Origin: an uncultured Alphaproteobacteria bacterium
GTDB lineage: Bacteria > Pseudomonadota > Alphaproteobacteria > ATCC43930 > CGMCC-115725
Assembly (NCBI GenBank): GCA_963797115.1
Contig: CAWCOH010000002.1
Coordinates: 643,168 to 707,167 of the forward strand
Direction of reading: 5' to 3'
Length of the DNA: 64,000 nt
The notes below the pieces were generated by a model. The model did not search any database. It was given only the letters and a program-made list of their open reading frames with translations, and was not told the DNA's origin. Both the position numbers and the translations under genes were made by a program. Shown one piece after another: positions 8,212 to 44,390 of this stretch (positions within the stretch are counted from its first letter, which is position 1; each line of letters opens with the position of its first letter).

Positions 8212-10152
8212 TTACACCGCCGGGCGCGAAATCACCGCGTTCGCCGGCGCGTCGATCCACATGCGAAACCACAGCTCGAGCATCAAAAGAGCCCACAACT
8301 GGGTATGGTGATCGCGGGTAGCGCTGCAGTGTTCGTCGAGCAAAAGACGGACGTAGTCCGCGCGGAAGACGCCACGCTCGCGCGCGCTCTGCGAGAGCAA
8401 CGTATCGTAAGCAAGTTCCTTGAGCTCGCCGCGGAACCAGTGGTCGACCGGACAGCTAAATCCCATCTTGGGCCGGTAAAGCAGCCCAGCCGGCAAATAT
8501 GGCTGCATCGCTGATTTGAACAGGGATTTGGTGACGCCGCGGTACATCTTGGGGATGCGCGGTATACCCACTGCCCACTCCATCAGAACATGGTCGAGAA
8601 GCGGCGAGCGGGCTTCGAGCCCGTGCGCCATGCTGGCGACATCCACCTTGACCATCAGGTCATCGGGCAGATAGGTGTGAATGTCGGCTCGATTCGCAGC
8701 GGTCACAAGGTCGTCAGCTTCATCAAAGTAGGGATCGAGGAGATCCAGCGTGGAGCCCCTCGATCGCTCGCGCATCGCCTCGCAGTATCCCTCTTCCTTG
8801 TCCCGATCGGCGAATGAAACAAACGTCGATGCGTAGCGTTGCGCCGGAAACTCCTCTGGGACCTGCAAGACACCTCGGATCCGAGGGATCCTCAACCGAC
8901 GCTGCGCCGAGGCCGGTGCCAGAGCGAGAAATCGATCTATTCCGGCCCGGCTCCAGCGCGGCGTTCTGTCGAGCCGTGACAGATAATACAGCGCCTTATA
9001 CCGGTTATAGCCGAGAAAGCACTCATCCCCACCATCCCCATTCAGCGCGACGGTCACCTTGCGACGGGCCATTTCAGAGATGTAATAGGTCGGGATCGCG
9101 GACGGATCAGCGAAGGGCTCGCCATAATGCCAGACAAGACGTGGCAGTACGCTTACCGCGTCGGGGTGGACGACCAGCTCTTCGTGGTCTGTCCCATAGC
9201 GTTTCGCTACCATGCGAGCGTACCGAGTCTCGTCATATTCCTTTGCCGAAAACCCGATCGAGAAGGTCTTGACCTTGCCGCCGCCGGCGCGCGCCATCAT
9301 CGCAACAACGGCAGAAGAATCGACCCCGCCCGACAGAAAAGCGCCGAGCGGCACGTCCGATACGAGACGGAGGCGTACGGCCTCCTCGAGCCGATCGACC
9401 AGCTCGTGCCGTAGCTCGGCGACTGTTCGATGGCGGCGCGCGGAGCGCGGCTCGGGTAAACGCCAGTAACGGATGAGTTCGGGCTCGGTCAACTCTCCTC
9501 CCGGGCGTGCATCGATAACCACATAATGTGCCGCCGGAAGTTTGCAGACGCCGGCAAAGGCGGTGTGCGGTGCCGGCACGTAGCCCAAAGTCAGATAATG
9601 GTCTATGGCGGTTAGTTCCGGCGCGCGCGCCAGACTTGGCCAAGTGAGCAATGCTTTGATTTCCGACGCGAACAGGAAGCCCGCTGCAAACCGGGCGTAA
9701 TAGAGCGGCTTCTTGCCGATCCGATCACGCGCAAGAACCAGGCGATGCGATCGCCGGTCCCAGATCGCCAGCGCGAACATGCCGTGCAATCGGGGGATGA
9801 TCCTTGGCCCCCAGGCCTGCCAGCCGTTAACGATGACCTCGGTATCGCTGCGGCTGCGGAAGCTATAGCCTGCGGCTTCGAGCTCCCGTCTTATCTCTGC
9901 GAAATTGTAGATCTCGCCGTTATAGGTGATCCAAGCAGTCTCGTCCGCGCTTGCCATTGGCTGATGCCCGGCAGGCGACAAGTCGATGATCGACAACCGC
10001 GTATGAGCGAGACCAGCCTGGCGATCGGTCCAGACGCCTTCGTCATCCGGCCCGCGATGCCGCAGCATCGCGATCATCGCCCAGAGGCGGGCCTCGAGAT
10101 CACGATTGGACGCATCTGCCTGGGACAGGAGAAAACCGCTGATGCCGCACAT
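8212..10152 (-). CDS. AsnB-family glutamine-dependent amidotransferase (paralogue 1)
   Basis: 646 aa. N-terminal nucleophile MCGISG, the glutaminase block RLSIIDLS..GHQPM and the PP-loop motif FLSGGVDSS. Confidence 0.93.
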   Translation of the reverse strand: MCGISGFLLSQADASNRDLEARLWAMIAMLRHRGPDDEGVWTDRQAGLAHTRLSIIDLSPAGHQPMASADETAWITYNGEIYNFAEIRRELEAAGYSFRSRSDTEVIVNGWQAWGPRIIPRLHGMFALAIWDRRSHRLVLARDRIGKKPLYYARFAAGFLFASEIKALLTWPSLARAPELTAIDHYLTLGYVPAPHTAFAGVCKLPAAHYVVIDARPGGELTEPELIRYWRLPEPRSARRHRTVAELRHELVDRLEEAVRLRLVSDVPLGAFLSGGVDSSAVVAMMARAGGGKVKTFSIGFSAKEYDETRYARMVAKRYGTDHEELVVHPDAVSVLPRLVWHYGEPFADPSAIPTYYISEMARRKVTVALNGDGGDECFLGYNRYKALYYLSRLDRTPRWSRAGIDRFLALAPASAQRRLRIPRIRGVLQVPEEFPAQRYASTFVSFADRDKEEGYCEAMRERSRGSTLDLLDPYFDEADDLVTAANRADIHTYLPDDLMVKVDVASMAHGLEARSPLLDHVLMEWAVGIPRIPKMYRGVTKSLFKSAMQPYLPAGLLYRPKMGFSCPVDHWFRGELKELAYDTLLSQSARERGVFRADYVRLLLDEHCSATRDHHTQLWALLMLELWFRMWIDAPANAVISRPAV

Positions 10153-10235
10153 TCGTTATAGTCCGATATCGGACGATCGTTCGCCGCCCGGTTGCCGAGA
10201 CGTCCAGCGGGCGCGGAACTCTGAGTTGCGCGGGA

Positions 10236-11447
10236 TCACCTCACGGACACCATCTGATGAAGGGCTGCAAGCCGATGATGGTAGGCATGCCGTTCGCGGA
10301 TCAAATCGTAAGCTGCATCAGCTACCCGGCCGCGCTCCGCCGGATCGCGAAAACGCTCGATTACTTCCCTTATATTGCCGAGATCCGAGTCGAGTGCAAT
10401 GTAGTGCCGGTCAGCCTCTAAAATATCGTTATACCGTCCCCTTAATAAAATCTGGCAAGTTCCTGTCCCAGCTGCGTCGAAATGGCGCGACGAAATGCAC
10501 TTCGAGTAATTGGGACAACGCTCTCGGTTAATAAAGAACCGCGCCTCAATTTCCTCAAAACTCACTAAATTGTCGTGCATTGCCTCGTGCTGTATGGGCA
10601 ACGCCTTCAGCAGGGCCTTTAGCCACTCCTTCATAACATACGGAAGGCGCCGGCTCGCCGCATGGATCAGTCCATCGGCGCGAAGCGTCCCGGCGCCACC
10701 TTTGGATCTGATGTATTCACGGATCTCGAGCGCCGTCCGGTCGTCGCGCTCAAGATACCACGACCCGGCCTCGGTTCCGATCGTCCCCCGGCAATCGTTG
10801 AGAAACGCAGCCCAGCCCGTTCGATCCAATCGGCCACCGTTGTCGATATCTACGCACAATCTGGCTTGGAGCGGGATCTGCGCAAATGCATCATAGACGC
10901 GGTTGCGTTCGTCGTCACCGAGGAAGACTGGATACCGCGCGCTGCGTCCGCCGATATCGATCGACCGCAAAACATCCGCCTTGTCTTTGCGAAACACCTC
11001 GCTATTCAAGGCGTGCGGCAGCGAAAGAACGCAGGCGCCGCTACCCTCATAGAGCCAACGTCCTGTATCCAACGGCAGCTGGGTCCCGACCCATTCGGCG
11101 TTCACCTTTTGCAAAAAGGCGCGCTTTTCGGCGATCGGCGCCCAGGGCAGATTGTATTCGTTGGCAACGAACATCAGGAACCGGCCCCGCCGAGCTTCGA
11201 GAGCCGTGACGAGCGGCTTGATATAATCGAGCGTATCGGCCGAACATGCGTGCAGGGCAATTACCAGCTCCGCCCGTTCAACGGCCCGTCGGGCAGCTTG
11301 ACGCTGATTCCGACTGAAGAGGTTGAAACACGTCACCGCGAAGTGCGGCGAGCGTGCGAATGCGTCGGCCCAATCGAGATAATAGGATGACCGGGTGCTG
11401 TACTGGACGGTCAGCAGGACGGTTTGGATTCGACTTTCGTCGGGCAT
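10236..11447 (-). CDS. CgeB-like glycosyltransferase-fold protein (module 1)
   Basis: 403 aa. The C-terminal block ISSRHFDAAGTGTCQILLRGRYNDILEADRHYIALDSDLGNIREVIERF is shared with 27333-28535, with the N-terminus of the 988-aa protein and with the pseudogene. This pattern fits the Glyco_trans_1_2 / CgeB family. Confidence 0.75.
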   Translation of the reverse strand: MPDESRIQTVLLTVQYSTRSSYYLDWADAFARSPHFAVTCFNLFSRNQRQAARRAVERAELVIALHACSADTLDYIKPLVTALEARRGRFLMFVANEYNLPWAPIAEKRAFLQKVNAEWVGTQLPLDTGRWLYEGSGACVLSLPHALNSEVFRKDKADVLRSIDIGGRSARYPVFLGDDERNRVYDAFAQIPLQARLCVDIDNGGRLDRTGWAAFLNDCRGTIGTEAGSWYLERDDRTALEIREYIRSKGGAGTLRADGLIHAASRRLPYVMKEWLKALLKALPIQHEAMHDNLVSFEEIEARFFINRERCPNYSKCISSRHFDAAGTGTCQILLRGRYNDILEADRHYIALDSDLGNIREVIERFRDPAERGRVADAAYDLIRERHAYHHRLAALHQMVSVR

Positions 11448-12490
11448 CTCAAATAGTCGACAATGACCTGCACCGCTTTGTCCGCTGCATGTCCGTCTCC
11501 AAAAGCGTTGACGTCACGCCGCGGTGCGTAGCCCGGCCCCTTCCATAAGCGGTTCCACCCTGCCGACACCGTCTCCACCCACTCCGTCTCACTCCGCATG
11601 GTGACGCAAGGTATCCGATGGAAATAGGCTTCCTTCTGCAATCCGCCGGAATCGGTGAAGACGGTCTTCGCCGACTGCACCAGCCGATGCATGTCGAGAT
11701 AGCCGAGGGGATCGCAGACGATGATTTCGCCGAGATCGAGCCTCCATTCTGCAATCCGGTTGCGCGTTCGCGGATGCACCGGAAACACCACGACGTGCTC
11801 GCGCGTCAGCGCCTTAAGATAGGCGATTGCCTCGCTTAATGCCTGACGGTCGTCAGTGGTTTCGGCACGGTGCAGAGTGGCGACGACATAGGAACGCGCG
11901 CCGATACCGAACCGATCCAGCACGTCAGATCGATCAAAGTTGACGGCAGCAAACCGGACGGTGTCGTACATCACATCACCGACATGATGCACCCCGTTGA
12001 TAATTCCTTCCCGGCGCAGATTTTCCACCGCGGTTTCGGTGGGGCAGAGCAGGAGAGTGCTGACATGGTCAGCCAACACTCGGTTGATCTCTTCGGGCAT
12101 GCGGCGATTGAAAGACCGCAGCCCCGCTTCGAGGTGGGCGATTGGGAGATGCAGCTTCGCGGCGGCCAATGCGCCGGCGAGCGTCGATGTCGTATCGCCG
12201 GGCACGACCACGAGGTCGGGCGCCTCGGTTACCATGATTTTCTCGAGAGCCTCGATCATCCGACCGGTCATCTTGCCGTGGCTGCCACTGTGGATCCCGA
12301 GGTTCACATTCGGCTCGGAAATCTGCAGCTCGTCAAAAAAGATACGCGATAGGCTCGGATCGAAATGCTGGCCAGTATGGACGAGTATCTCGGTGATACC
12401 GCCATGGGCGGCTATCGCCCGCGACATGGCGGCGGCTTTGACGAATTGCGGCCGTGCACCGACGACCGTGAGGATACGCCACGTCGTCAC
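11411..12490 (-). CDS. wecB: UDP-N-acetylglucosamine (or UDP-GlcNAc3NAcA) 2-epimerase, non-hydrolysing
   Basis: 359 aa with ILTVVGARPQFVKAAAM, HTGQHFD and HLEAGLRSF motifs. Its 4-nt ATGA overlap with the upstream SDR gene suggests translational coupling. Confidence 0.92.
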   Translation of the reverse strand: MTTWRILTVVGARPQFVKAAAMSRAIAAHGGITEILVHTGQHFDPSLSRIFFDELQISEPNVNLGIHSGSHGKMTGRMIEALEKIMVTEAPDLVVVPGDTTSTLAGALAAAKLHLPIAHLEAGLRSFNRRMPEEINRVLADHVSTLLLCPTETAVENLRREGIINGVHHVGDVMYDTVRFAAVNFDRSDVLDRFGIGARSYVVATLHRAETTDDRQALSEAIAYLKALTREHVVVFPVHPRTRNRIAEWRLDLGEIIVCDPLGYLDMHRLVQSAKTVFTDSGGLQKEAYFHRIPCVTMRSETEWVETVSAGWNRLWKGPGYAPRRDVNAFGDGHAADKAVQVIVDYLRCPTKVESKPSC

Positions 12491-13575
12491 GGGTAGACTG
12501 CGCGCAGCTCGGGCAAAAAGCCGGAGTGCTGCAGCATGCAGCGCCGGATCGTCTCTCGATTATCGCGCGTCCAGTCGATAGTGCGCTGAAGGCCCTCGGC
12601 CAGGAGCGTGAGGACGGCAAATTGCAATCTGTCACGAGCCTTGTCCGTCGCGCCGAAGCGTCTGCCCGAGCGGTCCCAGTCGCGGGCCCCGGCAATCGCC
12701 AAGGGAGTGTGATTACTTGTCAAGCGATTGATTAGGCCTGCCAAGTCGAGAATCGACGTCTCCACCCCGGAGGCAAGATTGTAGACCTCGCCAGGCTCGC
12801 CGTTTGCCGCGCAAGCAAGAAGGCCACGCACGATGTCGCCGACAAAAATAAAATCGCGCGTAGCGACTCCGCCGTTTTCAATCGGCAGCGCCTCATCGTG
12901 CAGCGCCTTCCAGATGAAAGTCGGTATGACGTTTCGCCACACCGTATGTGGCGTGCCGCGCCACCGTCCGGCACCAAGGATCTCGCCCGGCCCATAGACG
13001 TTTTGGAACCGCGCCTTCACAACAGGCAGGCCATAGCGTACGAAGTAATAATTACCGTACATCTCGCCAACGAGCTTTGAAATGCTATAGGGGCTATCAT
13101 GGTACAGCGAGACCGGCATGTCTTCGGTCGTGGCACTCGCCTCGTCGAAGGTCTTGATTGCGGCCGCACAGCCGGCAGAAGCATAAACTACCTTCTGCAG
13201 CGAGCGGATACCTTTCAAGCGGTCGAACAGCTTCAGCGTCGTCAAGGTATTGTTGGCGTGATCGGCAAGGGGGTCGTGGATGGATGACTGGTTGCCGTGA
13301 TAGCAGGCAAGGTGAAAGACGAAATCGAGATCATTCGGCAGTGATTTGAGCACTGCGTCGTCAGCGATCGAGCCAAGGATAAATTCAACAGCGGAATGCT
13401 TCGGCACGTTCGCGATATCGGCCGACACCAGATTGTCGACGATAAAGAGGAGTTGCGGACCTTGCGAGAGCAACTGGCGCACAAGGTTTCCACCGACAAA
13501 CCCCGCGCCACCGACCACGAGGATTGCGCTACCCCTTATGCCCGAACCCATCACGACGGCGACTGCGCGGCCCAC
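12487..13575 (-). CDS. NAD-dependent sugar-nucleotide epimerase/dehydratase (extended SDR)
   Basis: Rossmann motif VVGGAGFVGGNL and catalytic YSISK. An alternative start at ATG 13551 would overlap the upstream stop by 1 nt. Confidence 0.85.
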   Translation of the reverse strand: MGRAVAVVMGSGIRGSAILVVGGAGFVGGNLVRQLLSQGPQLLFIVDNLVSADIANVPKHSAVEFILGSIADDAVLKSLPNDLDFVFHLACYHGNQSSIHDPLADHANNTLTTLKLFDRLKGIRSLQKVVYASAGCAAAIKTFDEASATTEDMPVSLYHDSPYSISKLVGEMYGNYYFVRYGLPVVKARFQNVYGPGEILGAGRWRGTPHTVWRNVIPTFIWKALHDEALPIENGGVATRDFIFVGDIVRGLLACAANGEPGEVYNLASGVETSILDLAGLINRLTSNHTPLAIAGARDWDRSGRRFGATDKARDRLQFAVLTLLAEGLQRTIDWTRDNRETIRRCMLQHSGFLPELRAVYP

Positions 13576-14495
13576 GGCTTCAGATGGCTAAAGGTCGCCG
13601 AAACGCCATGCGCGTCGTACCAACAAAGGACGCGTCTGATCGTCTCGGCGAAATCAACCTTGGCCTTCCAGCCAAGCAGCGCGAAGGTGTAGGCGGGATC
13701 GAGCACCACGGCAGCGATGTCATCGGCAGCCACTGGAACCACCTGAACCGGTGTAGCCGTATCGACACCGAGATGCGCCGCTACCTCCTCGAAAACCTCC
13801 TTGATCGAGTGCCCGAGCCCGGTCGACACGTTGAAGATGCCTGTCGGTGCGTCCTCGCGCAGGACTATATCCATCAGATCGATAAAATCGGCCATGTCGA
13901 GGAAGTCGCGCACCGCATCGCTGCAGAAGCATTTCTGGCCGGCCTTGAGCCGCTGATAGAAGGCCGGGATCGGTCCGATCGCAAGACGCGGCCCGCAAAT
14001 GTTGGCAAGACGCAGAGACACCCAGGAGAGCTCGCTCTGGGCGACGTAGGCTTCTCCGGCGGTCTTGCTAATGCCATAGCTAGTAATCGGCCGGGTCGGA
14101 TGATCGGCCGGGATCGGCACACGCTCCGGCCGGCCATAGCACAACGCCGTCTGGAAATTGACGAATCGCTTGACGCCAGCGCGCCTTGCCGCCTCTAGCA
14201 CGTTGATAGTGCCGACCACATTGGTACCCGCGTCCTCGCGCCAGTTCCCTGGATCCTTGTAGGCGGCGGCGCTGTGAATGACATGCGTGGGTGCAAAGCA
14301 GGCAAAGACTTCGTCGACGAAATCACGATCGGCAATCGTCCCGCAACCAGCCGAAAGGCCCGGAACATCGGGCAGAGCTTCGCGTCGACCGGTGGCAAAG
14401 TTGTCGATCGCGAGGATTTCGTGGCCGCGGGGCAGGTAAGTCTCGATCAGGTTCGAGCCGAGACAGCCCGCGCCGCCGGTGATCAGAACCCTCAC
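13551..14495 (-). CDS. NAD-dependent epimerase/dehydratase (extended SDR), tandem paralogue A
   Basis: MRVLITGGAGCLGSNL, IDNFATGRRE and catalytic YGISK. It is a paralogue of the next gene. Confidence 0.88.
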   Translation of the reverse strand: MRVLITGGAGCLGSNLIETYLPRGHEILAIDNFATGRREALPDVPGLSAGCGTIADRDFVDEVFACFAPTHVIHSAAAYKDPGNWREDAGTNVVGTINVLEAARRAGVKRFVNFQTALCYGRPERVPIPADHPTRPITSYGISKTAGEAYVAQSELSWVSLRLANICGPRLAIGPIPAFYQRLKAGQKCFCSDAVRDFLDMADFIDLMDIVLREDAPTGIFNVSTGLGHSIKEVFEEVAAHLGVDTATPVQVVPVAADDIAAVVLDPAYTFALLGWKAKVDFAETIRRVLCWYDAHGVSATFSHLKPWAAQSPS

Positions 14496-15430
14496 GAATT
14501 CCCCTCGAAGCGGAGATGCGTGTAGCCGCCCTGGACCCCTCGGTCCCGGTAATAGGCGACGGTCTCTTCGACAATATCGTCAAGCGGCGTAAAGGTCATC
14601 TCCCCGAAATCGCGTATGGTGCGCGCCGGGTCGAGCAGGATGGTGGGCGCATCGTCGGCTGCAAGCGGCCGGATTTCTGGAGCCGGGTATTCGTTGAGCT
14701 TCATCGCCCGGACCACCGCGTCGTAGAGATCTTTGATCGCAACATCCCGGCCGGAAGAGAAATGGTAGGTGCCGTTCCCGATGCCGTCGGCAGCGCTCAA
14801 TACAATGCGCGCGAGATCCTGCACAAAGACGAAATCGCGCCGCGCCTCGGTGACAAAACAGCGCTTTCCCTGCGACAGCCTCTCGAAAAAAATCGGCAAT
14901 GGGCCGCTGACGTTGCGCGGCCCAATCACATTAGCGAGACGAAAGGTGATCCAGTCGACCCCGCTCATTTCGATGTAGCGCTCGCCGGCTGTTTTGGAGA
15001 TCGCATAGCTGTTGCCCGCCGGATTGACCGGGTGATCCAGCGTGATCGGCTGTTCGAGCGGGTTGGTACCGTAGCACAAGGCGGTCTGAAAGTAGATCAG
15101 CCGGCCGACCTTGTGGCCCTTGCAGGCGCCCGCGACGTTGGCGCTGCCGACGCAGTTGGTCAGGGCATCCGATTCCCAGTCGTCCGGGTCCTTGTAGGAG
15201 GCGGCGGTGTGGACGACCACATCGGGACGAAAATCGCCGACCAGACCGTCGACGATCCGCGCGTCGGCGATGCTCTCCTCGACCAAGCGGAGGCGCGGGT
15301 GCGGCGACAGGTTGTCTCGCCGGCCAGTCGCAAAATTATCGATCGCGACCACCTCGTCGCCGCGGGCGAGCAGCAAGTCGCTGACCGTGGAGCCGACCAG
15401 CCCGGAGCCGCCGGTCACAAGCACCTTCAT
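14492..15430 (-). CDS. NAD-dependent epimerase/dehydratase (extended SDR), tandem paralogue B
   Basis: Start set at MKVLVTGGSGLVGS (ATG 15430). Carries IDNFATGRRD and catalytic YAISK. 4-nt overlap with the downstream gene. Confidence 0.88.
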   Translation of the reverse strand: MKVLVTGGSGLVGSTVSDLLLARGDEVVAIDNFATGRRDNLSPHPRLRLVEESIADARIVDGLVGDFRPDVVVHTAASYKDPDDWESDALTNCVGSANVAGACKGHKVGRLIYFQTALCYGTNPLEQPITLDHPVNPAGNSYAISKTAGERYIEMSGVDWITFRLANVIGPRNVSGPLPIFFERLSQGKRCFVTEARRDFVFVQDLARIVLSAADGIGNGTYHFSSGRDVAIKDLYDAVVRAMKLNEYPAPEIRPLAADDAPTILLDPARTIRDFGEMTFTPLDDIVEETVAYYRDRGVQGGYTHLRFEGNS

Positions 15431-15473
15431 CTCAGTCGCTCTTACCCTGGGTTTCGGACCGGGCACACATCGG

Positions 15474-17291: not shown

Positions 17292-17331
17292 ATAGTCGTC
17301 TGCGCGTAGCTCTTATAGCGGTGGGTATAGT

Positions 17332-19146
17332 TCAACAGGCAGAAGCTTCCACGTTATCCGGGCTGAGCCCCGCACGCGAAACCAGTTCGGCGGCCTTTTC
17401 CGGCGCGACGCAGTTTGTCGTCAGCCAATGGCGCAGTTTTCCAGCCACTTCGTCGTCGGACACTGTCGCGGGGTCCGCGCCACCCATCGCCTGCATGATA
17501 TCGGCGTCCTCATCGGCTCGCTCGCTCGCTATGAAAATCGGCATGGATATGGTGCCTTCGGTCTTCTGATTCTTCAGCTGTTGCTCAGCCGTCGTGTAAC
17601 GCCGCCACCGAATTGCCGTGGTGTAGAACTTGGGATCCTTCGTTATGCGCCATAGTTCTGTGACCAGCTTGGTGTGCCATTCGTGATAGAGTCCATTGAT
17701 CTGCGACCACTGGTTGATGGTGTTAGGCAGAGGGAAATGAGCGACACATTCCGTTTCGGTGCTACCATGATCGCTTGGGAATATCTCCATATAACCTTTG
17801 CTACTCGCCCGGTAATCATAGGTGGCGAGAGTAGGGACAGCACATTCGGGCGATCTATAGTGCACGTTGATATCCATTCCAGCAACGTTTACCGGATCAT
17901 GATCTATTGTCAGCCGTCCCGGCAGCAATCGCACCTTTCCCATGCCGTTCAGCTTACGCCCCCACGCGGAGACATCCTTCCAACCCTCTCCCCACGCTTG
18001 GTTGCCAGCATAGGTTGAGGTCTCCTTTTCCCCCAGCCGCAGCACGCTGGGCTCACTTACGGTCGAGGTTACCGACACCTCGCGAATTTCAGCACCGGGA
18101 ACTGTTGAGACTAAGGTCAGCATAACATCCAGAGCACGCGGTCGCGCCTGATATATCGACCAGTAGCCAGTATCAAAACGCAACAGCATGCGTTTGGCAC
18201 TCGCCACACCTTCTCTGAAGGCGTCGCCCACCCGCTCGTCACCGGTCAATTTGTACAGATGATAGAGCATCACCGTCGAATATAAGTGGCCATTCAAGAT
18301 CATAGGGGCGAAACCATACGGTACAGGAATTTCTTCGAACCAAGGAACACCACCGACCTCACATCGAATGCCCCCACGCTCGCAAGGAACTGTGAACGCG
18401 ACACCCGCGTGCAACGCCAAGTCTGAGTAAGAGCCATCGAGGCTCTTGCGATACGCAAGGATAAGAGACTTGATAACATCGGCCTGAGCGAATGCCGACG
18501 GCCACCCGCTCTTAATGACGATATTGTTAAACGTATGATCGAATGTATAATGCCAGACTGTCGCGTCTCCATCGATCTTGACTTGATTTTCTATTAGCCA
18601 ATCGATCGCTACCTTTTCCAACCGAGAAAGCGAAGGTTCACGTTTTAATGCCTCCTCCAAATCAAGGTCAACGAAATCGATACCGCTTGCTTGGGCTGAG
18701 ATGTTCGCTATGTGTCTTTTTACGCCGCCAGCTATGTGGACGGCCCTGACATCGTGTTCGTCCAAGAACGACGAAAATTGCGGTGTCCGCTCGGGCAGGT
18801 TCAGCTGACCATCGGGACCTGGCTCGATGACGTCGAACGACACAACAGGGGAGCTGCTGCTGACATGCACCGAAGCTGCGCTGTCGTCCGCCGAGCTGCT
18901 ATTCGTAAACGCCGCACCGAAGACACAGATCACAGCAGCACAGAGCTTGGTCTTGTCTGCAACTCGACAATTATGGGCAAGTAGGCAGGAGCCGCTCACG
19001 TTTCGGCTCCATAATCTACCGTGCAAGAAGAAAATCCCTCTTTCGGAGGCGCAGATGGAGCGATCAGCACCCGTCCCCGGCGGCCATCGCGGTCTCCTCG
19101 CCAGCCGCCTCGGCCAACATCCGGCGGTATTGGGCGGCGCGGTCAT
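17332..19146 (-). CDS. exported D-glucuronyl C5-epimerase-like protein (GLCE C-terminal domain homologue)
   Basis: GWPSAFAQADVIKSLILAY, WFEEIP...MILNGHLYSTVMLYHLYKLTGDE, RMLLRFDTGYWSIYQ and LYHEWHTKLVTELWRITKDPKFYTTAIRWRRY align motif for motif with the human GLCE C-terminal domain as I recall it. A signal-peptide-like DKTKLCAAVICVFGAAFTNSSSA is present. The true start may be GTG near 18999, because the ATG at 19146 overlaps the upstream gene by 83 nt. Confidence 0.75.
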   Translation of the reverse strand: MTAPPNTAGCWPRRLARRPRWPPGTGADRSICASERGIFFLHGRLWSRNVSGSCLLAHNCRVADKTKLCAAVICVFGAAFTNSSSADDSAASVHVSSSSPVVSFDVIEPGPDGQLNLPERTPQFSSFLDEHDVRAVHIAGGVKRHIANISAQASGIDFVDLDLEEALKREPSLSRLEKVAIDWLIENQVKIDGDATVWHYTFDHTFNNIVIKSGWPSAFAQADVIKSLILAYRKSLDGSYSDLALHAGVAFTVPCERGGIRCEVGGVPWFEEIPVPYGFAPMILNGHLYSTVMLYHLYKLTGDERVGDAFREGVASAKRMLLRFDTGYWSIYQARPRALDVMLTLVSTVPGAEIREVSVTSTVSEPSVLRLGEKETSTYAGNQAWGEGWKDVSAWGRKLNGMGKVRLLPGRLTIDHDPVNVAGMDINVHYRSPECAVPTLATYDYRASSKGYMEIFPSDHGSTETECVAHFPLPNTINQWSQINGLYHEWHTKLVTELWRITKDPKFYTTAIRWRRYTTAEQQLKNQKTEGTISMPIFIASERADEDADIMQAMGGADPATVSDDEVAGKLRHWLTTNCVAPEKAAELVSRAGLSPDNVEASAC

Positions 19147-21022
19147 GGAAGATCTGGTACCACAATTCGAGGCTCAACAGACCCCAGGTTTTGCGCGAAA
19201 AACGGCTGGCGCTCTCGAAATTGGCGAGAACCGCATTAGCGTTTAGATAGGGGCGCTGGCGCGCATTGCGGCTGCGGAAGGTGTCCTGCACGAGGTCGTG
19301 CAACTCGCCTGAAAACCACTCCTTCAGCGGAACCGGAAAGCCCATCTTGTCACGGCGTGCCGCGATTGGCTCCGGCAGCTCACCCTCGTAGGCGAGCTTC
19401 AGCAAATGCTTCATTTGGCCGCCTCGGAACTTGACGTCGGCCGGCACGGTGGCGGCAAATTCGATCAACGGGTGGTCGAGCAAGGGCACTCGGCTCTCCA
19501 GCCCATGCGCCATGCTCATCCGGTCCTCGACCTGGAGCAAGGCCGGCAGCAGGCATTTGAAATCAAAATGAGTCATCTTGTCGAAATAGGCCTCTTTATG
19601 GACGTTGCTCTGACTATTGAAGATTGCAAGGAAGCTTTCTAGTACCCGATCCCGATCGAGCGATGACCAGTCGACTTCCTGCTCCATATCGGTGGAGCGG
19701 TCGACGAGCCGGAAATAGCGCTGGTCGAGCCCGCCGAAGAGGCCTTCTCGCCAAAACTCGGTCATTAACGGTTTGTACTCGCGCAATAGCCCAAGGTTAG
19801 GTACAATCGATTCTATGGTGACGACAAAGTTGCCGTTCTTGTACGTGCCATCGAGTGCTGCTTTGATGCATTGCTCGAAGTAGGCAAGCAGGTAACGGGC
19901 ATAGCCGCCGAAGATCTCGTCGCCACCCTGACCTCCGAGGACCACCTTCAAATGGCGTGCGGCGAGTTGCGAGACCATGAACTGTGGGAACGAGCCGGGC
20001 CCGGCCACCGGAAAATCGAGGTGGTACAGCACATCTGCGATGTGGTCGCGAAAGTGCTGGGCAGTGATGTCTATGACGTGGAGACGGGCGCCAGCCTCTG
20101 CGACCGCAGTCGCCGCGTAATCGCTCTCGTCGTAGCCCTGGAATTGGGTAAAGCGGCCGTGGAAGCAGTTGGCGATGCCGCGATCGGTTTTGCCGGCGAG
20201 GATCGCGATCAGGCTCGAATCCACCCCCCCGGAGACATAGGCGCCGACTGGCACATCGCTGCGCAGGTGCATCCGTATCGAGTTGTCCAGCAGCTCGACC
20301 AGACGCTTCTCGAAAAATCGTGCGCTATGGTCGTAATCTATCTCGTAACGGACGTCCCAATAGCGCCAAACGCGGACCACGCCGTTCTCGACGGCCAGCG
20401 CATGACCCGGCAAAAGTTGTTTGACGCCTCGGAACAGGGTGGCCTCGCCGATCGTGTACTGGAAAGTCAGATATTCGGCGAGCGCGTCGGGATCGCTTTC
20501 GATCGAGGGCAGGAAAGGAAGTAGTGCTTTTGCCTCCGAGGCGAACACGAACTGATTTCCGACAACAGCATAATAGAACGGTTTGATGCCGAAGCGGTCA
20601 CGTGCGCAGAATAGGCGCTTGCGCCGGTCGTCCCAGATCGCAAAGGCGAACATGCCGCGCAGCCGGTCGAGACAGCCGGATTCGTAACGGTCATAGGCGG
20701 CGAGGAGGCATTCGGTGTCCGAAGTCGAGCGAAAATCCCAGCCGGGCGACAGCGCGTCACGAAGCTCCAGATAGTTGTAGACCTCACCATTGTAGGTGAT
20801 CGCCGTTGGTCCCGGCGCGACCATCGGCTGGCGCGCGGCATCGCTCAGATCGATGATCGCGAGCCGGCGGTGGACGAGCCCGGCGCAACGCGATCCGGCT
20901 ATCCAGGCGCCGTCGCCGTCCGGCCCGCGATGCGCAACCATGGTTCCGAGCAGATCGAGCGCGGCGCCGAGCCGGACAACCGGCGACCCGTCCGTCGAAA
21001 CGATACCCGCGATCCCGCACAT
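19064..21022 (-). CDS. AsnB-family glutamine-dependent amidotransferase (paralogue 2)
   Basis: Start set at MCGIAG (ATG 21022). Carries RLAIIDLS..ARQPM and the PP-loop YVSGGVDSS. Confidence 0.93.
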   Translation of the reverse strand: MCGIAGIVSTDGSPVVRLGAALDLLGTMVAHRGPDGDGAWIAGSRCAGLVHRRLAIIDLSDAARQPMVAPGPTAITYNGEVYNYLELRDALSPGWDFRSTSDTECLLAAYDRYESGCLDRLRGMFAFAIWDDRRKRLFCARDRFGIKPFYYAVVGNQFVFASEAKALLPFLPSIESDPDALAEYLTFQYTIGEATLFRGVKQLLPGHALAVENGVVRVWRYWDVRYEIDYDHSARFFEKRLVELLDNSIRMHLRSDVPVGAYVSGGVDSSLIAILAGKTDRGIANCFHGRFTQFQGYDESDYAATAVAEAGARLHVIDITAQHFRDHIADVLYHLDFPVAGPGSFPQFMVSQLAARHLKVVLGGQGGDEIFGGYARYLLAYFEQCIKAALDGTYKNGNFVVTIESIVPNLGLLREYKPLMTEFWREGLFGGLDQRYFRLVDRSTDMEQEVDWSSLDRDRVLESFLAIFNSQSNVHKEAYFDKMTHFDFKCLLPALLQVEDRMSMAHGLESRVPLLDHPLIEFAATVPADVKFRGGQMKHLLKLAYEGELPEPIAARRDKMGFPVPLKEWFSGELHDLVQDTFRSRNARQRPYLNANAVLANFESASRFSRKTWGLLSLELWYQIFHDRAAQYRRMLAEAAGEETAMAAGDGC

Positions 21023-21476
21023 AGCTGCTCGCCTAAAAACTAAGACCATTGTGGCCGGGTTGGGTCCAGCGACCCCACACGGCAGCTCGAGCTGCGAAAC
21101 CCCTGCGTGGCGGCCGGTTCACTCCCGGCTTAACGGGAAAAGTCGATATTTCGCCATCTCGCGGTATAAGACCGCACAGGGTGGTGATCTGGTCTGACCA
21201 GAACGGCCTAGGCGGGTTGCGACTCGGCATTCCTAAAATTGCCCAATTTGTGCGATATCTCTGCCAATGCTCAGGTGGCCCAGGCAAACCACCCGTTGAG
21301 CCGGCCCACGATCTCGGCGCACTCGAGCTCTACAACCTGAAGACGATCTCCCGCTGCAGACCCGCTGCAGGTGCAGCGGTCTGTCATATATGAGACAACC
21401 ACAAGTAGGAGGGTGTTCGAGCCGGCATCAGACCGTTACCGCTACCCTGCCGCCGACATATGGCGGCGCTCTCCGG

Positions 21477-22940
21477 TCACTCAGCAGCCCGCACAGCTGC
21501 CATTTCTACCACTCCCTCGTCGACATCGTCGGCCGTGCGATAGAGCGCGTAGAGGGTCTTGGCCTGGACTTGCCAATTGAAGCGTTCGCGAGCGAACCGC
21601 ATGGCATTCTCGCGACTGTGTTTGAGCAATTCAGGATCGCCGACCACACGGTGGACCGCCGCGGCAAGGGTGTCGAGGTCGGCAGAATCGTAGAAGACCC
21701 CAGCCTCCGCCTCGATCAGTACCGACTTTACGTAGGGAAGATCGTTGGCGATCACCGTCAGCCCCGCATGCAGATATTGCGACAGCTTGTTGGGGCAGGA
21801 GAGCCGATCGTTGATGATCAACGGCTTATAGGGAATGATGCCAATTTCGGCCTCGGCGGCCGCCGCAACCAATTGGTCTTCCTTAACTGCGTCCAGGAAG
21901 TAAACGCTGCGGTCGAGCAGTCCGAGGCGCGCGGCGAGCGCCATTGCAGCTTGGCGCCACATGTTGTCGGGTCCGCGCAAGAAGAGGGCGGCCCGGCCGC
22001 CGTCGATCCTTGCCCAACCTTCGATCAACTCGTCAATTCCCCGGCCGCGGGTAAATCGCCCCTGGAAGAGGCACCTGGTTCGGCCCGCTGCGAGCCGCTC
22101 CATCTCAGAACCCTTGGCCGGTTTCGGCCGGGTCTCGACCCACGGCTCGGCATTAGGCACGGCATAGACGCGTTCGAGCCCATAGGCGTCCCGCATCGCC
22201 GCGGCGAGAGCCGGGTTGACGGTAATGACAGCGTCAGCCTTGTGGATAAGGTATCGTTCCAGCATCGAGAAGAAGGTGACGTCGATCCACCGTCCGTCCG
22301 GATCGCTGTGCGGATAGAACTCGTGGGCATCGAATATTAGACGGCATCCATAATGCTGCTTCGCTAGCGCTCCGACCAAGAGGGTATCGAGATCGTTGCA
22401 GTGGACTACATCAGGTTTCTCCGGCAAATCGCGTACGTAGTTCCAGAAGAGCGATGTCGCGGTGGCGAACTGTACCCGGAGAACAGCCAAAATGAACTGC
22501 AGTCTGGCGATGGATCGGCTGCGGACGAGACCCAGAGGCGTCGAGAAGCGAATCGCCTTGAGGAACAGCGAAACGGTCACCAGCCGCAACACCAAACGCG
22601 CCATTCCACTCAACAGGCGGAGCAATATCTCCGCCAAGACCATGAACGGCAAGATCAGCACAACCAGGATCCCTAGGAGAACGCGAATCGGGCTCGGGAC
22701 AAGGTCCTTCAGCCGCCACAGATAATAGGCCGCGCTCACCTGGTTCGGCCGCAACCGCACCAGCCGGTAGCCGTCCACGCTCTCCACTCCGGGCAGTGAT
22801 CCGTCATCCCGGTTGAAGCCGAGCACCGACACAACAAAGCGGTGAGCCGCTCCTTCGGCTTCCCAGCGGATGCGGGGATCGAGAGTCGGCTCGTGCGCAC
22901 AGATCATCAGAACTCTGAGGGGTCTGGTCGCAGAGATCAC
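21477..22940 (-). CDS. GT4-type (GT-B) glycosyltransferase with an inserted hydrophobic segment
   Basis: 487 aa with LRVLMICAHEPTLDPR, the hydrophobic stretch VLLGILVVLILPFMVLAEILL, FDAHEFYP, and CPNKLSQYLHAGL in the C-terminal GT1 domain. Its architecture parallels the middle module of the 988-aa protein (GHEPTMDPR, YDAHEFWP, SPNKLSQYMAAGV). Confidence 0.85.
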   Translation of the reverse strand: MISATRPLRVLMICAHEPTLDPRIRWEAEGAAHRFVVSVLGFNRDDGSLPGVESVDGYRLVRLRPNQVSAAYYLWRLKDLVPSPIRVLLGILVVLILPFMVLAEILLRLLSGMARLVLRLVTVSLFLKAIRFSTPLGLVRSRSIARLQFILAVLRVQFATATSLFWNYVRDLPEKPDVVHCNDLDTLLVGALAKQHYGCRLIFDAHEFYPHSDPDGRWIDVTFFSMLERYLIHKADAVITVNPALAAAMRDAYGLERVYAVPNAEPWVETRPKPAKGSEMERLAAGRTRCLFQGRFTRGRGIDELIEGWARIDGGRAALFLRGPDNMWRQAAMALAARLGLLDRSVYFLDAVKEDQLVAAAAEAEIGIIPYKPLIINDRLSCPNKLSQYLHAGLTVIANDLPYVKSVLIEAEAGVFYDSADLDTLAAAVHRVVGDPELLKHSRENAMRFARERFNWQVQAKTLYALYRTADDVDEGVVEMAAVRAAE

Positions 22941-23044
22941 GGCTGGCCTCTTGCGAAGGATTCTCGTGAAATCGTGTAGCCGGCCTTAGCGGTCATTCCT
23001 GACAAATAGTCTTTGGAACAACAAGACGGAGCCATGGGCTCTAG

Positions 23045-24373
23045 CTAAGCCGAGGAGATTTCCCGGCCACTTTTGTTGGCTCCGATCCTTACGCCGCGAT
23101 AGGACCGCCATGCGGCGAGCAATCCCGAGGAGCGGACCAATTGAGGACGGATGGTCCCGGCCAGCTCTTGATAACGGCGCTCCACGCGACGCGCCTGCTC
23201 GTCGAGGTCGCCTTCGCGACGTACGATGTCGAGCGCGTTTCTGGCGAGCTTTGCCCGTAGGCAAGGGTCCTCCAGCAAGCACGTAATCCCATCGGCGATC
23301 GCTTCGGGGGTAGCTTCGACGAAATAGGCACTCTCTTTATGCCGCACGATCTCTTCGTATCGCGCCAGCTTGCTGAGCACGTTGGGGGTCTCGCACGCCA
23401 TGCTCTCGAGGAGGGTCTGGGGCAGCCCGTCCGAGGAGGGCACCGCAACGGCGATCTCCGCCAGACTATAATACCGTGGCATCTCGGCGTGATCGATACG
23501 CCCGCAGAGCAAGACATGCTGGCCAAGGCCCAACCCCTCGATAAGTCGGGTGATCTCGGACCTGTAGTTGGGATCGGGCGAATATTCGGTCACTAGGAGG
23601 ATCGCCTCGGGAAATATCCGGCTTACCGTTGCCATCGCCTTGACGACGAGGTGGACACGATAGAGCGGCCGCAAGATTTTAGGGCTGAGAATCACCCGCC
23701 GATGCGAAGCGAGCCGTAGGGATCGCCGCAACTCTGAAGCCTCAACGCGTCGAAATTTGGCGACCGGGACGCCCCAAATGATACGCTCGGCTTTGCCCCC
23801 GAACCCCCCCAGTTGGTCGAGCACGTCGCTCAAGTAGTTCGATTTCGAGGTGATGTAGTCGGCCTTTCGCAACAATTCGAGCGTCAACCATTTCCCCACC
23901 GGGGTTGGGCTCCCCTGCTCCTCGAACAACACGTCCCCGCCCATAACGGTCACAACCAGGGGACGGCAACTCAGCACACCGGCGAGCCAGCCATAGTAGC
24001 TGTAGGCGAAATGGACGTGCACGATATCGGGGCGGCACCGACGCAACAGCCGGATAAAGGTGATCACCCGCCACGCGTCGTCGACCTTCCTCCCGCCGAT
24101 CCTGCGGGAGCCCCACAAGATCAACCGAAACCAGAACCTTCGCGCGAACTCAGGGTCGAGGGCCGGCACCAATTGAGTGACGCCCTCAATCCCGGCGGAG
24201 CTTGCGGTCTCGGTAATGAGGTAGACCCGGTGACCCATTTCGGCGAAACAGCGTGCACGCGCCGCAACGTGGGTGCTCTCGGCGGCGCCGATCAGGCAGA
24301 GAGTGAGCTTCCTGCTCGTCGGAGGCGCAATTGGCCCGGGCTCGACCCGGGCCAAATCCGCAAGTGCGCTCAC
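23045..24373 (-). CDS. GT4-type glycosyltransferase
   Basis: 442 aa with an N-terminal Rossmann LTLCLIGAAESTHV, VHVHFAYSY and the E..E-type C-terminal block SDGLPQTLLESMACETP. 4-nt overlap with the upstream AsnB gene. Confidence 0.85.
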   Translation of the reverse strand: MSALADLARVEPGPIAPPTSRKLTLCLIGAAESTHVAARARCFAEMGHRVYLITETASSAGIEGVTQLVPALDPEFARRFWFRLILWGSRRIGGRKVDDAWRVITFIRLLRRCRPDIVHVHFAYSYYGWLAGVLSCRPLVVTVMGGDVLFEEQGSPTPVGKWLTLELLRKADYITSKSNYLSDVLDQLGGFGGKAERIIWGVPVAKFRRVEASELRRSLRLASHRRVILSPKILRPLYRVHLVVKAMATVSRIFPEAILLVTEYSPDPNYRSEITRLIEGLGLGQHVLLCGRIDHAEMPRYYSLAEIAVAVPSSDGLPQTLLESMACETPNVLSKLARYEEIVRHKESAYFVEATPEAIADGITCLLEDPCLRAKLARNALDIVRREGDLDEQARRVERRYQELAGTIRPQLVRSSGLLAAWRSYRGVRIGANKSGREISSA

Positions 24374-26298
24374 CCCGGCAACCCCGGCTCGACTGCCGGC
24401 GTCGGCATCGGAGCGAGGCAGTCGCGCCGATCGACGAATTTTTGGTACCAGAGCTCCAACATCAACAGCGCGAAGATCTTGTTCGAAGCATCCACCCGCC
24501 CCGAGAAGTGGTCATCGAGCAACGCTGTCACCCGCTGGGCGCGGTAGAGGCCACGCCCGCTGAATTGTGCACTCGCGAAACTGTCGCGCACGAAATCCTT
24601 CAATTGCGCCCGCATCCACAGCTTCATCGGGACGTTGAAGCCTTGTTTCGGCCGATAGAGAATCGGCTTAGGGAGGTGAGCCTCCATCGCCTTCTTGACG
24701 AGATACTTGCCTTCGACGCCCCGTAGCTTGTGCCGGGAAGGCACCCTGAACGCCCACTCAACCAGATGGTGGTCGAGGAAGGGCACGCGCGCCTCTAGCC
24801 CGTGCGCCATCGTCATCCGGTCCACCTTCGTCAACATCTCGCTGACAAGCGTCGTCTTGATGTCGGTATAGAGCTTGCGCTGAAGCTGATCCGTTCCGGG
24901 CGCGTCGTCGAGACAACGTTGCACGACGTTGTCGTCCAGCGCGTCCAGAATCGGTCTGGCGAAATCGGGCTCCAGGAGTTCGGCCAAATCCTCGCGGTGG
25001 AAGCATGCAAAAGACCGAAGATAGCGTCCGTCTCGAGGCGAAATAGACCGGCGCCGCCGCCGCAGGGTTGCGGGCACGAGGCCGGCCAGCGCCCCGATCG
25101 CGCGCAATGCGGGCGCGAAGCCATTCGCCACGGCCCCGGCCACGCCCGAGATCGGCGGGAAATCCGCGTGGCGCCAGACATAGCCTGCGAAGACCTCGTC
25201 GCCACCATCGCCACTGAGCGTCACCTTGACGTGCCGCCGTGCAAGTTGTGCCAAAAAGTATAGCGCGAAGGCTGAGGAGATGGCGAAGGGCTCATCGGAA
25301 TGCCAGACGACCCGAGAGAGACCATCGACCAGATCCGGGGTGAGGTTGAATTCGTGGTGACGGGTGTTGCAATGTCCAGCGACGGCGGCAGCATAGTGGC
25401 TCTCGTCAAATTCGGCCAAGCCTGAGAAAGTGATGCTGAAGGTTTCGATCGGCGTCCGTGCCATCTGCGCCCCGACGGACACAATCGCGCTCGAATCGAC
25501 ACCCCCGCTCAGGAACGCTCCGACCGGCACGTCGGCAACCATGTGCGATCGCACCGCCGTTGCGAAACGCGCCTCGAACTCTCCGCATGCCGCCTCTAGG
25601 GATAGGCAGGGGTCCGAATCGATCGTGAGATCCCAGTAACGACGCCGTTCGATGCCGCGGCGGGTGACCTTCAGGTAGTAGCCGGGCGGCAATTTTTTTA
25701 CCCCTTTGAGAATGCAGCGCGCGTCGGGAATGCTAAGGAGCTGTAAGTACTCGGCGAGTGCGGTGTCATCGATCTCGCTTGCCACTCGTGGGTCGGCCAA
25801 AAGCCCCTTCATCTCGGAGGCGAACAGAAAATGCCTTTCGTCAGCGAAATAATAGAGTGGTTTGATGCCTAGGCGGTCGCGCGCGAGGAGTAGGCGTCGC
25901 TGGCGCGCGTCCCAGATTGCAAGCGCAAACATGCCGTCGACTTCGTCGAGAAAGCTCTCGCCCCGCTCTTGGTAGAGCCGGAGGATAACTTCGGTATCCG
26001 ATGTCGAGCGAAACCGATGGCCGCGGTGCCGCAAGCCCTCGGCCAGCTCGCCATAATTGTAGCACTCGCCATTGTAGGTGATCCAGATCGCACCGTCGTC
26101 GCTACCCATCGGCTGGTGGCCGCCGGGCGAAAGGTCGATGATCGACAATCTCCGATGACCGAGGCCGATATTCCCCGAAAGCCAATGGCCGCTGTCGTCC
26201 GGGCCGCGATGCGCAATAAGATCCGTCATCCGTTGGAGCAAATGCGGGTCGACGCGCGCCGCCGGATCAAACTCGAAGATCCCGGCAATACCGCACAT
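24370..26298 (-). CDS. AsnB-family glutamine-dependent amidotransferase (paralogue 3)
   Basis: 642 aa with MCGIAG, RLSIIDLSPGGHQPM and the PP-loop FLSGGVDSS. Confidence 0.93.
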   Translation of the reverse strand: MCGIAGIFEFDPAARVDPHLLQRMTDLIAHRGPDDSGHWLSGNIGLGHRRLSIIDLSPGGHQPMGSDDGAIWITYNGECYNYGELAEGLRHRGHRFRSTSDTEVILRLYQERGESFLDEVDGMFALAIWDARQRRLLLARDRLGIKPLYYFADERHFLFASEMKGLLADPRVASEIDDTALAEYLQLLSIPDARCILKGVKKLPPGYYLKVTRRGIERRRYWDLTIDSDPCLSLEAACGEFEARFATAVRSHMVADVPVGAFLSGGVDSSAIVSVGAQMARTPIETFSITFSGLAEFDESHYAAAVAGHCNTRHHEFNLTPDLVDGLSRVVWHSDEPFAISSAFALYFLAQLARRHVKVTLSGDGGDEVFAGYVWRHADFPPISGVAGAVANGFAPALRAIGALAGLVPATLRRRRRSISPRDGRYLRSFACFHREDLAELLEPDFARPILDALDDNVVQRCLDDAPGTDQLQRKLYTDIKTTLVSEMLTKVDRMTMAHGLEARVPFLDHHLVEWAFRVPSRHKLRGVEGKYLVKKAMEAHLPKPILYRPKQGFNVPMKLWMRAQLKDFVRDSFASAQFSGRGLYRAQRVTALLDDHFSGRVDASNKIFALLMLELWYQKFVDRRDCLAPMPTPAVEPGLPG

Positions 26299-28535: not shown

Positions 28536-28703
28536 GTAGGGTCCAAGAGAGCCCGCTGTCGGGGCAGCGGTCACGCGGCTACTGGGCGCGACTATGGCAA
28601 TCGGGCGAACCCGATACCGCAAACAATCAATCGGCGTGTACTGGCGACAGCGGCCGCAATAGCAGGCATAATTTCGCGAGCGTGCGAGCAAATCACTCGT
28701 CGT

Positions 28704-31670: not shown

Positions 31671-31730
31671 AAGCCGCGAAGCAGGATAGCCCGTGCCGCG
31701 ATGTCGCGGCGGTCGGCTGATATCGAGTGT

Positions 31731-33312: not shown

Positions 33313-33352
33313 AACCCAAGCTCGTCACTGCGCCTTTGCGCGGCCGACAGCG

Positions 33353-42564: not shown

Positions 42565-44390
<1,826 letters not shown>

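Follow-up and report, generated by a model that had tools for sequence, protein, structure and literature searches.

Three AsnB-type amidotransferases of separate clades in an alphaproteobacterial polysaccharide locus resembling Bordetella wbm

We analysed a 64,000-nucleotide (nt) stretch of DNA from an environmental alphaproteobacterium (the window, whose position numbers are used throughout), in which three AsnB-type amidotransferase genes, numbered copies 1 to 3 by rising coordinate, lie within one polysaccharide locus. Each copy probably (about 70%) amidates a different diacetamido-uronic acid, acting as a uronate C-6 amidotransferase in an O-polysaccharide locus with ABC-transporter-dependent export. 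The three copies belong to three old and separate clades, each with its own conserved neighbours, and on these sequence grounds distinct amidations, a possibility raised in an initial annotation of the window, appear the most plausible. By its gene content the locus is a relative of the Bordetella wbm locus and a further example of a known design that is widespread in soil bacteria.

The three amidotransferase genes and their clades

Copy 1 (8212-10152; 646 amino acids, aa), copy 2 (19064-21022; 652 aa) and copy 3 (24370-26298; 642 aa) were all on the minus strand, and the coordinates given for three full-length AsnB-type open reading frames (ORFs) in the initial annotation were borne out. The frame of copy 2 was open to 21049; its start was placed at 21022 because the orthologues begin at the Met of MCG and an N-terminal nucleophile (Ntn) amidotransferase needs its Cys right after the initiator Met. 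The sequence motifs named in the annotation were seen in the translations of all three copies. The N-termini were MCGISG in copy 1 and MCGIAG in copies 2 and 3, with the Cys nucleophile following the Met. The glutaminase block RL(S/A)IIDLS...QPM read RLSIIDLSPAGHQPM in copy 1, RLAIIDLSDAARQPM in copy 2 and RLSIIDLSPGGHQPM in copy 3, and the PP-loop SGGVDSS was present in every copy. Pfam searches with each copy returned GATase_7/GATase_6 and a full-length Asn_synthase domain (PF00733), with E values of 1e-88 to 1e-105. All three scored 479-501 bits against the NCBIfam model TIGR01536, "asparagine synthase (glutamine-hydrolyzing)", whose cut-off is 267 bits.

Alignment with Escherichia coli AsnB showed that the glutamine-site residues Cys1, Arg49, Asn74, Gly75, Glu76 and Asp98 were identical in all three copies, and that the PP-loop, Gly347, Asp351, Tyr357 and Lys449 were likewise retained. 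Since the glutaminase site is complete in each copy, ammonia would be the nucleophile and a primary amide the product. The copies had been described as catalytically intact, which holds for the glutaminase site and the PP-loop but not for position 348, where Glu was replaced in all three. The ratio of nonsynonymous to synonymous substitution rates (dN/dS) against orthologues was 0.11-0.22 for all three copies, with dS near saturation, which points to purifying selection on each of them. With the motifs kept, orthologues available for every copy and selection of this kind, all three look functional, in agreement with the initial annotation. Decayed or regulatory copies were ruled out by the complete motifs, the dN/dS values and a change at position 348 that extends through each clade.

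A maximum-likelihood tree was built from 48 sequences, with WbpS, WbqG, PGN_1234 and the WbmC, WbmI and WbmZ of Bordetella strain RB50 not among them. A phylogeny of the copies had been called for in the initial annotation, and in the present tree they fell into three separate clades of their own, each with 100/100 support and apart from the XrtA clade. The clade of copy 2 (the WbmI clade) had eight members, including a Bordetella-type gene and a Caldilineaceae gene; that of copy 3 had seven, including Chloroflexota, and that of copy 1 had three, with orthologues in the genomes G001 and G002. The mutual identity of the copies was 36-42%, and this value and the three old clades ruled out a recent tandem duplication.

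For comparison with Bordetella we used two Bordetella-type loci (L079 and L080), which were reached by querying with the WbmH sequence taken from the alignment to PDB 2q1w. They come from Logan assemblies, with 96% identity between their WbmH and 2q1w, and neither is strain RB50 itself. Copy 2 is the WbmI orthologue: over its full length it was 52.6% identical to the AsnB gene that immediately precedes wbmH in L079, the wbmI position. Copies 1 and 3 showed 32-35% identity to any AsnB of L079 and lay in other clades.

The neighbours of the three copies were also conserved. In each of the eight genomes examined, a WbmI-clade gene shared its locus with WbmH and WbmF genes, and in six of them it adjoined the WbmH gene. 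Across phyla, wbmF, wbmG, wbmH and the WbmI-type gene move together as a cassette, and since copy 2 accompanies wbmH and wbmF in these eight genomes, it most likely serves as amidotransferase in the L-GalNAc3NAcA branch. The other copies form separate clades, each travelling with its own glycosyltransferases (GTs, named below by their length in aa). When species genomes were scanned with copy 3, closely similar loci turned up among uncultured alphaproteobacteria, Bosea, Stellaceae and also Chloroflexota. The block of GT452, AsnB3, GT442, GT487, WbmI, WbmH, WbmG, WbmF and WbmD was kept in three of the fetched glycan loci (L010, L012 and L064); a fourth, L009, had AsnB3 through WbmD in common with the window, but matches to GT452 and WbmG were not listed for it. 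The 442-aa GT followed the copy 3 orthologue immediately in L009, L010, L012, L013, L014 and L064, and the 487-aa GT lay between the orthologues of copies 3 and 2 in L009, L010, L012 and L064 as well. Orthologues of the 452-aa GT, 54-71% identical, were found near copy 3 orthologues. The copy 1 orthologues of two close relatives (G001 and G002) were located at the same left-hand boundary, formed by an EAL protein, a hydrolase, orf164 and AsnB1.

It is uncommon to find three copies inside 18 kb. Among 121 evenly sampled alphaproteobacterial genomes, at least three AsnB genes within 40 kb occurred only here and in one other genome among the matches listed, and two such genes within 40 kb occurred in about ten genomes, again among the matches listed. 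Of the related genomes searched, 6/6 carried three to four AsnB genes in one locus, within 30 kb or less. In an unrelated alphaproteobacterial family, G126 contig 21 (412858-447131; L124/L125) had three AsnB-type genes with WbpB/D-like and DegT-like genes. With its AsnB genes in other clades, this locus seems to be a separate instance of such an arrangement.

The polysaccharide locus and its predicted pathway

The region from 8.2 to 38.9 kb (~31 kb), with every gene on the minus strand, forms one polysaccharide locus that contains a Wzm/Wzt ABC transporter, Wbp enzymes, a 2-epimerase, three consecutive short-chain dehydrogenases/reductases (SDRs), six GT genes and a methyltransferase gene. At 37249-38865 is a 538-aa protein in which a WbpB-like oxidoreductase is fused to a WbpD-like hexapeptide acetyltransferase (Pfam GFO_IDH_MocA and Hexapep); the NCBIfam models for UDP-GlcNAc 3-dehydrogenase (UDP, uridine diphosphate) and for NeuD/PglB/VioB acetyltransferases matched it, both under their cut-offs. 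It is followed by a WbpE-like aminotransferase of the DegT family (36086-37252; DegT_DnrJ_EryC1, E 1e-101). A non-hydrolysing UDP-sugar 2-epimerase is found in the WbmD/WbpI position (11411-12490; Epimerase_2, E 3e-96; TIGR00236, 280 bits, above the cut-off; 55% identity to L079). The three SDRs are orthologues of WbmF, a proposed 3,5-epimerase (12487-13575; PDB 2pzj, E 7e-136; 62% identity to L079), WbmG (13551-14495; PDB 2pzk, E 9e-136; 65%) and WbmH (14492-15430; PDB 2q1w, E 8e-144; 66%). The WbmH ORF was open to 15496, and its 312-aa start agrees with the relatives, which are themselves 312 aa. The structures 2pzj, 2pzk and 2q1w were solved for the Bordetella bronchiseptica proteins WbmF, WbmG and WbmH, respectively (PMC2279256). 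Querying protein sequences with the WbmH-like protein of the window brought up thousands of relatives, exclusively from soil metagenomes and at 79-100% identity.

In the proposed pathway, the WbpB-WbpD fusion and the WbpE-like enzyme would lead to UDP-GlcNAc3NAcA, the WbmD/WbpI-type 2-epimerase would convert it to UDP-ManNAc3NAcA, and the WbmF/WbmG/WbmH orthologues would then give UDP-L-GalNAc3NAcA, as has been proposed for WbmF, WbmG and WbmH with UDP-D-ManNAc3NAcA as the starting compound. Pfam and NCBIfam searches found no pathway genes for other sugars in the locus, so that a polymer made up essentially of 2,3-diacetamido-hexuronic acids is expected. In each amidotransferase, the Cys1 glutaminase domain would free ammonia from glutamine, the C-terminal PP-loop domain would adenylate the sugar carboxylate with ATP, and ammonia would displace AMP from the acyl-adenylate to yield a primary uronamide. 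Each copy would serve a separate sugar or position and would supply the amidated donor to the adjoining GT. Copy 2, as the WbmI orthologue, would act with the L-GalNAc3NAcA cassette, copy 3 would pair with the 442-aa GT4 and the 452-aa CgeB-like GT, and copy 1 with the 403-aa CgeB-like GT.

The gene order agrees with these pairings in that each copy adjoins a GT gene. The 403-aa CgeB-like GT (10236-11447; Pfam Glyco_trans_1_2) lies directly upstream of copy 1 at a distance of 83 nt, and occupies the same place in G002. It is a paralogue, with 33% identity, of the 452-aa CgeB-like GT (27333-28691; Pfam), which is kept together with copy 3 and the 442-aa GT. The gene of the latter, a GT4 enzyme (23045-24373; Pfam), starts 4 nt before copy 3 ends, overlapping its stop codon. 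The 487-aa GT4 (21477-22940; Pfam) precedes copy 2. The overlap of copy 3 with GT442, the co-conservation of copy 3 with GT452 and the position of copy 1 after GT403 suggest that the copies supply donors to particular transferases. The operon is otherwise tightly packed, and the ~450 nt between the 487-aa GT4 gene and copy 2 (21023-21476) contained no convincing ORF; this gap may be an internal promoter or regulatory region.

The remaining two GT genes encode a 988-aa multi-module protein (28704-31670; GT4 and GT1 domains by Pfam over residues 533-841) and a 297-aa ORF with a CgeB-like GT module (31856-32749; weak Pfam match). The Bordetella-type locus has an 856-aa GT that is 31% identical to the former and 40% to the latter, and the two are 36% identical to each other. 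Export would be carried out by a Wzt-like ATPase with a C-terminal extension (33353-35269; Pfam ABC_tran, with Wzt_C under its cut-off) and a Wzm-like ABC-2 permease (35262-36047; Pfam ABC2_membrane).

Directly upstream of copy 3 is a gene for an S-adenosylmethionine-dependent methyltransferase (26308-27318) with one in-frame TAA (read-through CLGVI*HTPDPE). Its orthologues in L009, L010 and L012 were intact with Q at the position of the stop, that of L010 matching Methyltransf_11 with an E value of 4.5e-20, and the TAA may be a true nonsense mutation or come from an error in sequencing. The methyltransferase gene sits within the block from GT452 to the 2-epimerase in some relatives and is placed elsewhere in L009 and L012.

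Between WbmI and WbmH lie two genes (15474-19146) that are inserted here only, with no counterpart in L009, L010, L012 or L064. The first encodes a 605-aa protein with a hydrophobic N-terminus (15474-17291), for which Pfam and NCBIfam gave only a faint NHL repeat and no family. The second encodes a 604-aa protein (17332-19146) with a D-glucuronyl C5-epimerase C-terminal domain (C5-epim_C, E 3e-33) and a probable signal peptide. The two proteins may be periplasmic enzymes that modify the assembled polymer, conceptually like WbmE of Bordetella.

The G+C content was ~55% in the middle of the locus (the transporter and GT part, 28000-36000) versus 62-69% in the flanks. An IS21-type element (rve integrase and IstB) was found just right of the locus at 42565-44390. 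Both the element and the G+C drop would fit an origin of the locus by horizontal transfer.

Weighing the proposed function

Several points weigh against assigning a different uronic acid to each copy. Copies 1 and 3 carry Asp, and copy 2 Gln, in place of Glu348 of E. coli AsnB, a residue that on the basis of mutagenesis we take to be required for acyl-adenylate formation. The substrates of copies 1 and 3 are not transferable by orthology because of their low identity to the AsnBs of L079. A UDP-GlcNAc 6-dehydrogenase (WbpA) gene was not found in the window, and candidates are on other contigs. The genome has an asparaginyl-tRNA synthetase (AsnRS) and is without a canonical E. coli-type AsnB. 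Furthermore, the roles of wbmC, wbmI and wbmZ in Bordetella are themselves candidate assignments (PMC2615507).

Residue 348 tracked the clades of the tree. It was Glu in E. coli AsnB and in a single-copy clade of ~590-aa proteins from relatives, probably their housekeeping enzyme; Asp in the copy-1, copy-3 and XrtA clades; and Gln in the WbmI clade and in the clade of the other Bordetella-type genes. The substitution was fixed across the whole clade of each copy. Because it is fixed per clade and variable among glycan-locus AsnB homologues, the change appears to mark a different subfamily and not decay.

We also recorded residue 348 in the AsnB-type ORFs of 70 fetched glycan loci (L009-L078), where it was D in 28, Q in 11, E in 11, L in 8, T in 3, V in 2, A in 1 and H in 1. 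The supposedly essential Glu348 is thus often replaced among family members from glycan loci.

Gene content, orthology, clades, conserved residues and synteny come directly from the sequences, whereas we infer the substrate of every step, amidation of the sugar nucleotide as opposed to a lipid-linked intermediate, and the assignment of copies to sugars. A more specific version of the proposal, which we put forward tentatively as possible, is that one copy serves each UDP-diacetamido-hexuronate stereoisomer (gluco, manno and L-galacto) and feeds the adjoining GT, giving a largely charge-neutral poly-uronamide. The one-to-one match of three configurations to three amidotransferases is attractive as a conjecture. 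If it is true, the Asp and Gln clades at position 348 would be a readable substrate code for glycan-locus AsnBs, and functions could be assigned to wbmC, wbmI and wbmZ. In a bolder variant of this version, amidation may be physically coupled to the partner GT on the lipid-linked chain.

Among the alternatives, the one that survives best, although it is unlikely, is that one or more copies act with the adjoining GT on a lipid-linked or growing chain and not on a sugar nucleotide. The GT gene beside each copy, with the 4-nt overlap of AsnB3 and GT442, the 83-nt spacing of GT403 and AsnB1 and GT487 before AsnB2, would fit such coupling, and the authors of the Bordetella study could not rule out the polymer as substrate (PMC2615507). 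However, the supply of donor substrates explains the gene adjacency equally well, and the copies have no Pfam-detectable membrane or extra domain. Moreover, the Helicobacter pullorum wbpS mutant transfers un-amidated HexNAcA, after which the chain stops, and its authors read this as lost synthesis of UDP-HexNAcAN (PMC6025236).

A second alternative, which we regard as quite improbable, is that the copies are redundant isozymes for the same uronic acid, kept for dosage or differential regulation. They do share one architecture and one glutaminase site, and the amount of amidation could be a tuned trait, given that only about 17% of residues in the Bordetella polymer are amidated, in a random pattern (PMC2615507). 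Yet redundant copies would not be expected to form separate orthologous groups under dN/dS of 0.1-0.2, nor would redundancy account for 36-42% identity, three old clades and different neighbours that are conserved across phyla.

It is less probable still that one copy is also, or mainly, the asparagine synthetase of the cell. The AsnRS and the lack of a canonical AsnB noted above and the passing of the TIGR01536 cut-off by all three copies speak for this, as does the absence from the genome of the ~590-aa, Glu348-keeping single-copy clade that is found in G001, G002 and G004. However, the housekeeping AsnB model NF006949 gave 282.6, 266.5 and 351.4 bits for copies 1, 2 and 3, and its cut-off of 499 bits was not reached. 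Glu348 is not kept, and the residues at the putative aspartate-site positions K376, D384 and R387 differ, in a part where the alignment is weak. All copies are embedded in a glycan operon with conserved glycan-gene neighbours, and the assembly is 96% complete, so that the housekeeping gene may merely be missing.

Two further observations concern the rest of the genome. On contig 1, at least six partial AsnRS-like matches lie within 9 kb (1330354-1338943) beside an intact asnS, with more near 2684556-2688370; these may represent repeats or else paralogues of the AsnRS core, perhaps AsnA-like synthetases, and they bear on asparagine supply. A fifth AsnB-type gene on contig 2 (176711-178391; L005/L006), adjoining a GT2-like gene, is split in two frames of 308 aa and 435 aa, and two UDP-sugar dehydrogenase matches on the same contig are split likewise (near 878174/878544 and 124411/124739). 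The split frames may be assembly indel errors and not real pseudogenes.

The least probable alternative, with very little in its favour, is non-canonical chemistry by at least one copy, for example an amide formed with an amino acid or another amine, a hydroxamate, a lactam or an amidine. The closest solved structure to copy 3 is a hydroxyamidotransferase (PDB 7ylz), ahead of E. coli AsnB, and the variable residue 348 (D, Q, E, L, T, V, A, H) in glycan-locus AsnBs suggests a rebuilt acceptor site. However, the glutaminase site is complete in all three copies, whereas the catalytic Cys has been lost from beta-lactam synthetase and other family members that work without ammonia from glutamine. 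In the systems known, acetamidino sugars come from WbpG/WbuX-type enzymes and not from AsnB. All three copies also scored far under the cut-offs of the lasso-peptide and macrolactam cyclase models. These scores and the retained glutaminase site ruled out lasso-peptide or macrolactam cyclase and beta-lactam-synthetase-like chemistry, and left the amidino, lactam and amino-acid-amide linkages proposed in the initial annotation unsupported. The glycan-locus homologues that have been tested experimentally all give primary uronamides (PMC7468200, PMC6025236).

Comparison with known systems

The window copies share with E. coli AsnB (PDB 1ct9) the class II Ntn glutaminase and PP-loop synthetase fold, with Cys1, R49, N74, E76, D98, SGGxDS, D351 and K449. 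However, their identity to it is low, it sits on a long branch, E348 is replaced and NF006949 is not reached. The copies also have ~90 extra residues and a large insert before K449, and the aspartate-site residues are not kept. The top solved-structure match of copy 3, 7ylz (E 2e-80, residues 1-378), has Glu at the 348 position (SGEAADE in the alignment), unlike copy 3, and is an enzyme of a natural-product pathway. This match probably comes from overall similarity among members of the TIGR01536-type group.

The XrtA/PEP-CTERM amidotransferase has the same architecture, Asp at 348 and a loose grouping in the tree with the copy-1 and copy-3 clades (support 83/84), but it forms its own separate clade with 100/100 support. 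Its model, TIGR03108, gave 618.7, 415.0 and 615.1 bits for copies 1, 2 and 3, and the cut-off of 816.9 bits was not reached. The fourth intact AsnB-type gene of the genome (contig 1, 586953-588632) scored 1015 bits and is a true member. An XrtA/PEP-CTERM identity of the window copies was ruled out by the scores under the cut-off and by this true member elsewhere in the genome.

A functional parallel is provided by the WbpS-type enzymes. The AsnB homologue PGN_1234 of Porphyromonas gingivalis (PMC7468200) and WbpS of H. pullorum (PMC6025236) are genetically needed for uronamide formation. The same role has been proposed for WbpS of Pseudomonas aeruginosa O6 and reported as required for WbqG of E. 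coli O121 (PMC7468200). Like the window copies, these proteins are of AsnB type and encoded in glycan loci, and they are required for HexNAcA(N) or GlcNAc3NAcAN amides. WbpS and WbqG have been assigned to the eps_aminotran_1 family (PMC7468200). Among the NCBIfam models, that of this family fitted copies 1 and 3 best as well (618.7 and 615.1 bits, under the 816.9-bit cut-off), and the likeness of these two copies to WbpS and WbqG is drawn through it. Unlike the window, the known WbpS-type cases have one copy per locus.

Uronamide formation alters the charge of surface polymers and with it antigenicity, interactions with phage and complement, and cation binding. The enzymes that form uronamides have so far been defined genetically only, in single-copy cases, and the three candidate amidotransferases of Bordetella wbm have been without assigned roles since 2009. 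The present locus is no new kind of system, and its value is that of a tractable system, in a non-pathogenic organism, for assigning substrates to amidotransferase clades.

The nearest known system is the wbm locus of Bordetella, which carries three candidate glutamine amidotransferase genes, wbmC, wbmI and wbmZ (PMC2615507). The view in the initial annotation that single AsnB homologues are the norm in such loci was therefore overstated. The B. bronchiseptica O antigen is a homopolymer of L-GalNAc3NAcA, partly as the uronamide, with a linker that contains ManNAc3NAcAN and GalNAc3NAcAN and a triamino-galacturonamide cap (PMC2615507). Since the Bordetella uronamides are spread over polymer, linker and cap, several amidations per repeat unit, as that annotation had it, are not implied by several amidotransferases.

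The two loci differ in several respects. Two AsnB genes of the Bordetella-type locus lie directly upstream of wbmH-wbmG-wbmF and one adjoins the 2-epimerase gene. In the window the C5-epimerase-like and 605-aa genes split WbmI from WbmH, and the Wbp genes are inside the locus. Copies 1 and 3 are on the Asp348 branch and not the Gln348 branch, and, at 32-35% identity, appear not to be orthologues of the other two AsnBs of L079. A WbmE-like, transglutaminase-like periplasmic deamidase gave no match in the whole genome (tblastn with the L080 protein, E <= 1e-8), and the host, an environmental alphaproteobacterium, is unlike Bordetella. The features in common are export by an ABC transporter, three AsnB-type genes, the WbmF/WbmG/WbmH triad at 62-66% identity and WbmD at 55%, and the predicted sugars of both loci are 2,3-diacetamido-hexuronic acids and their amides.

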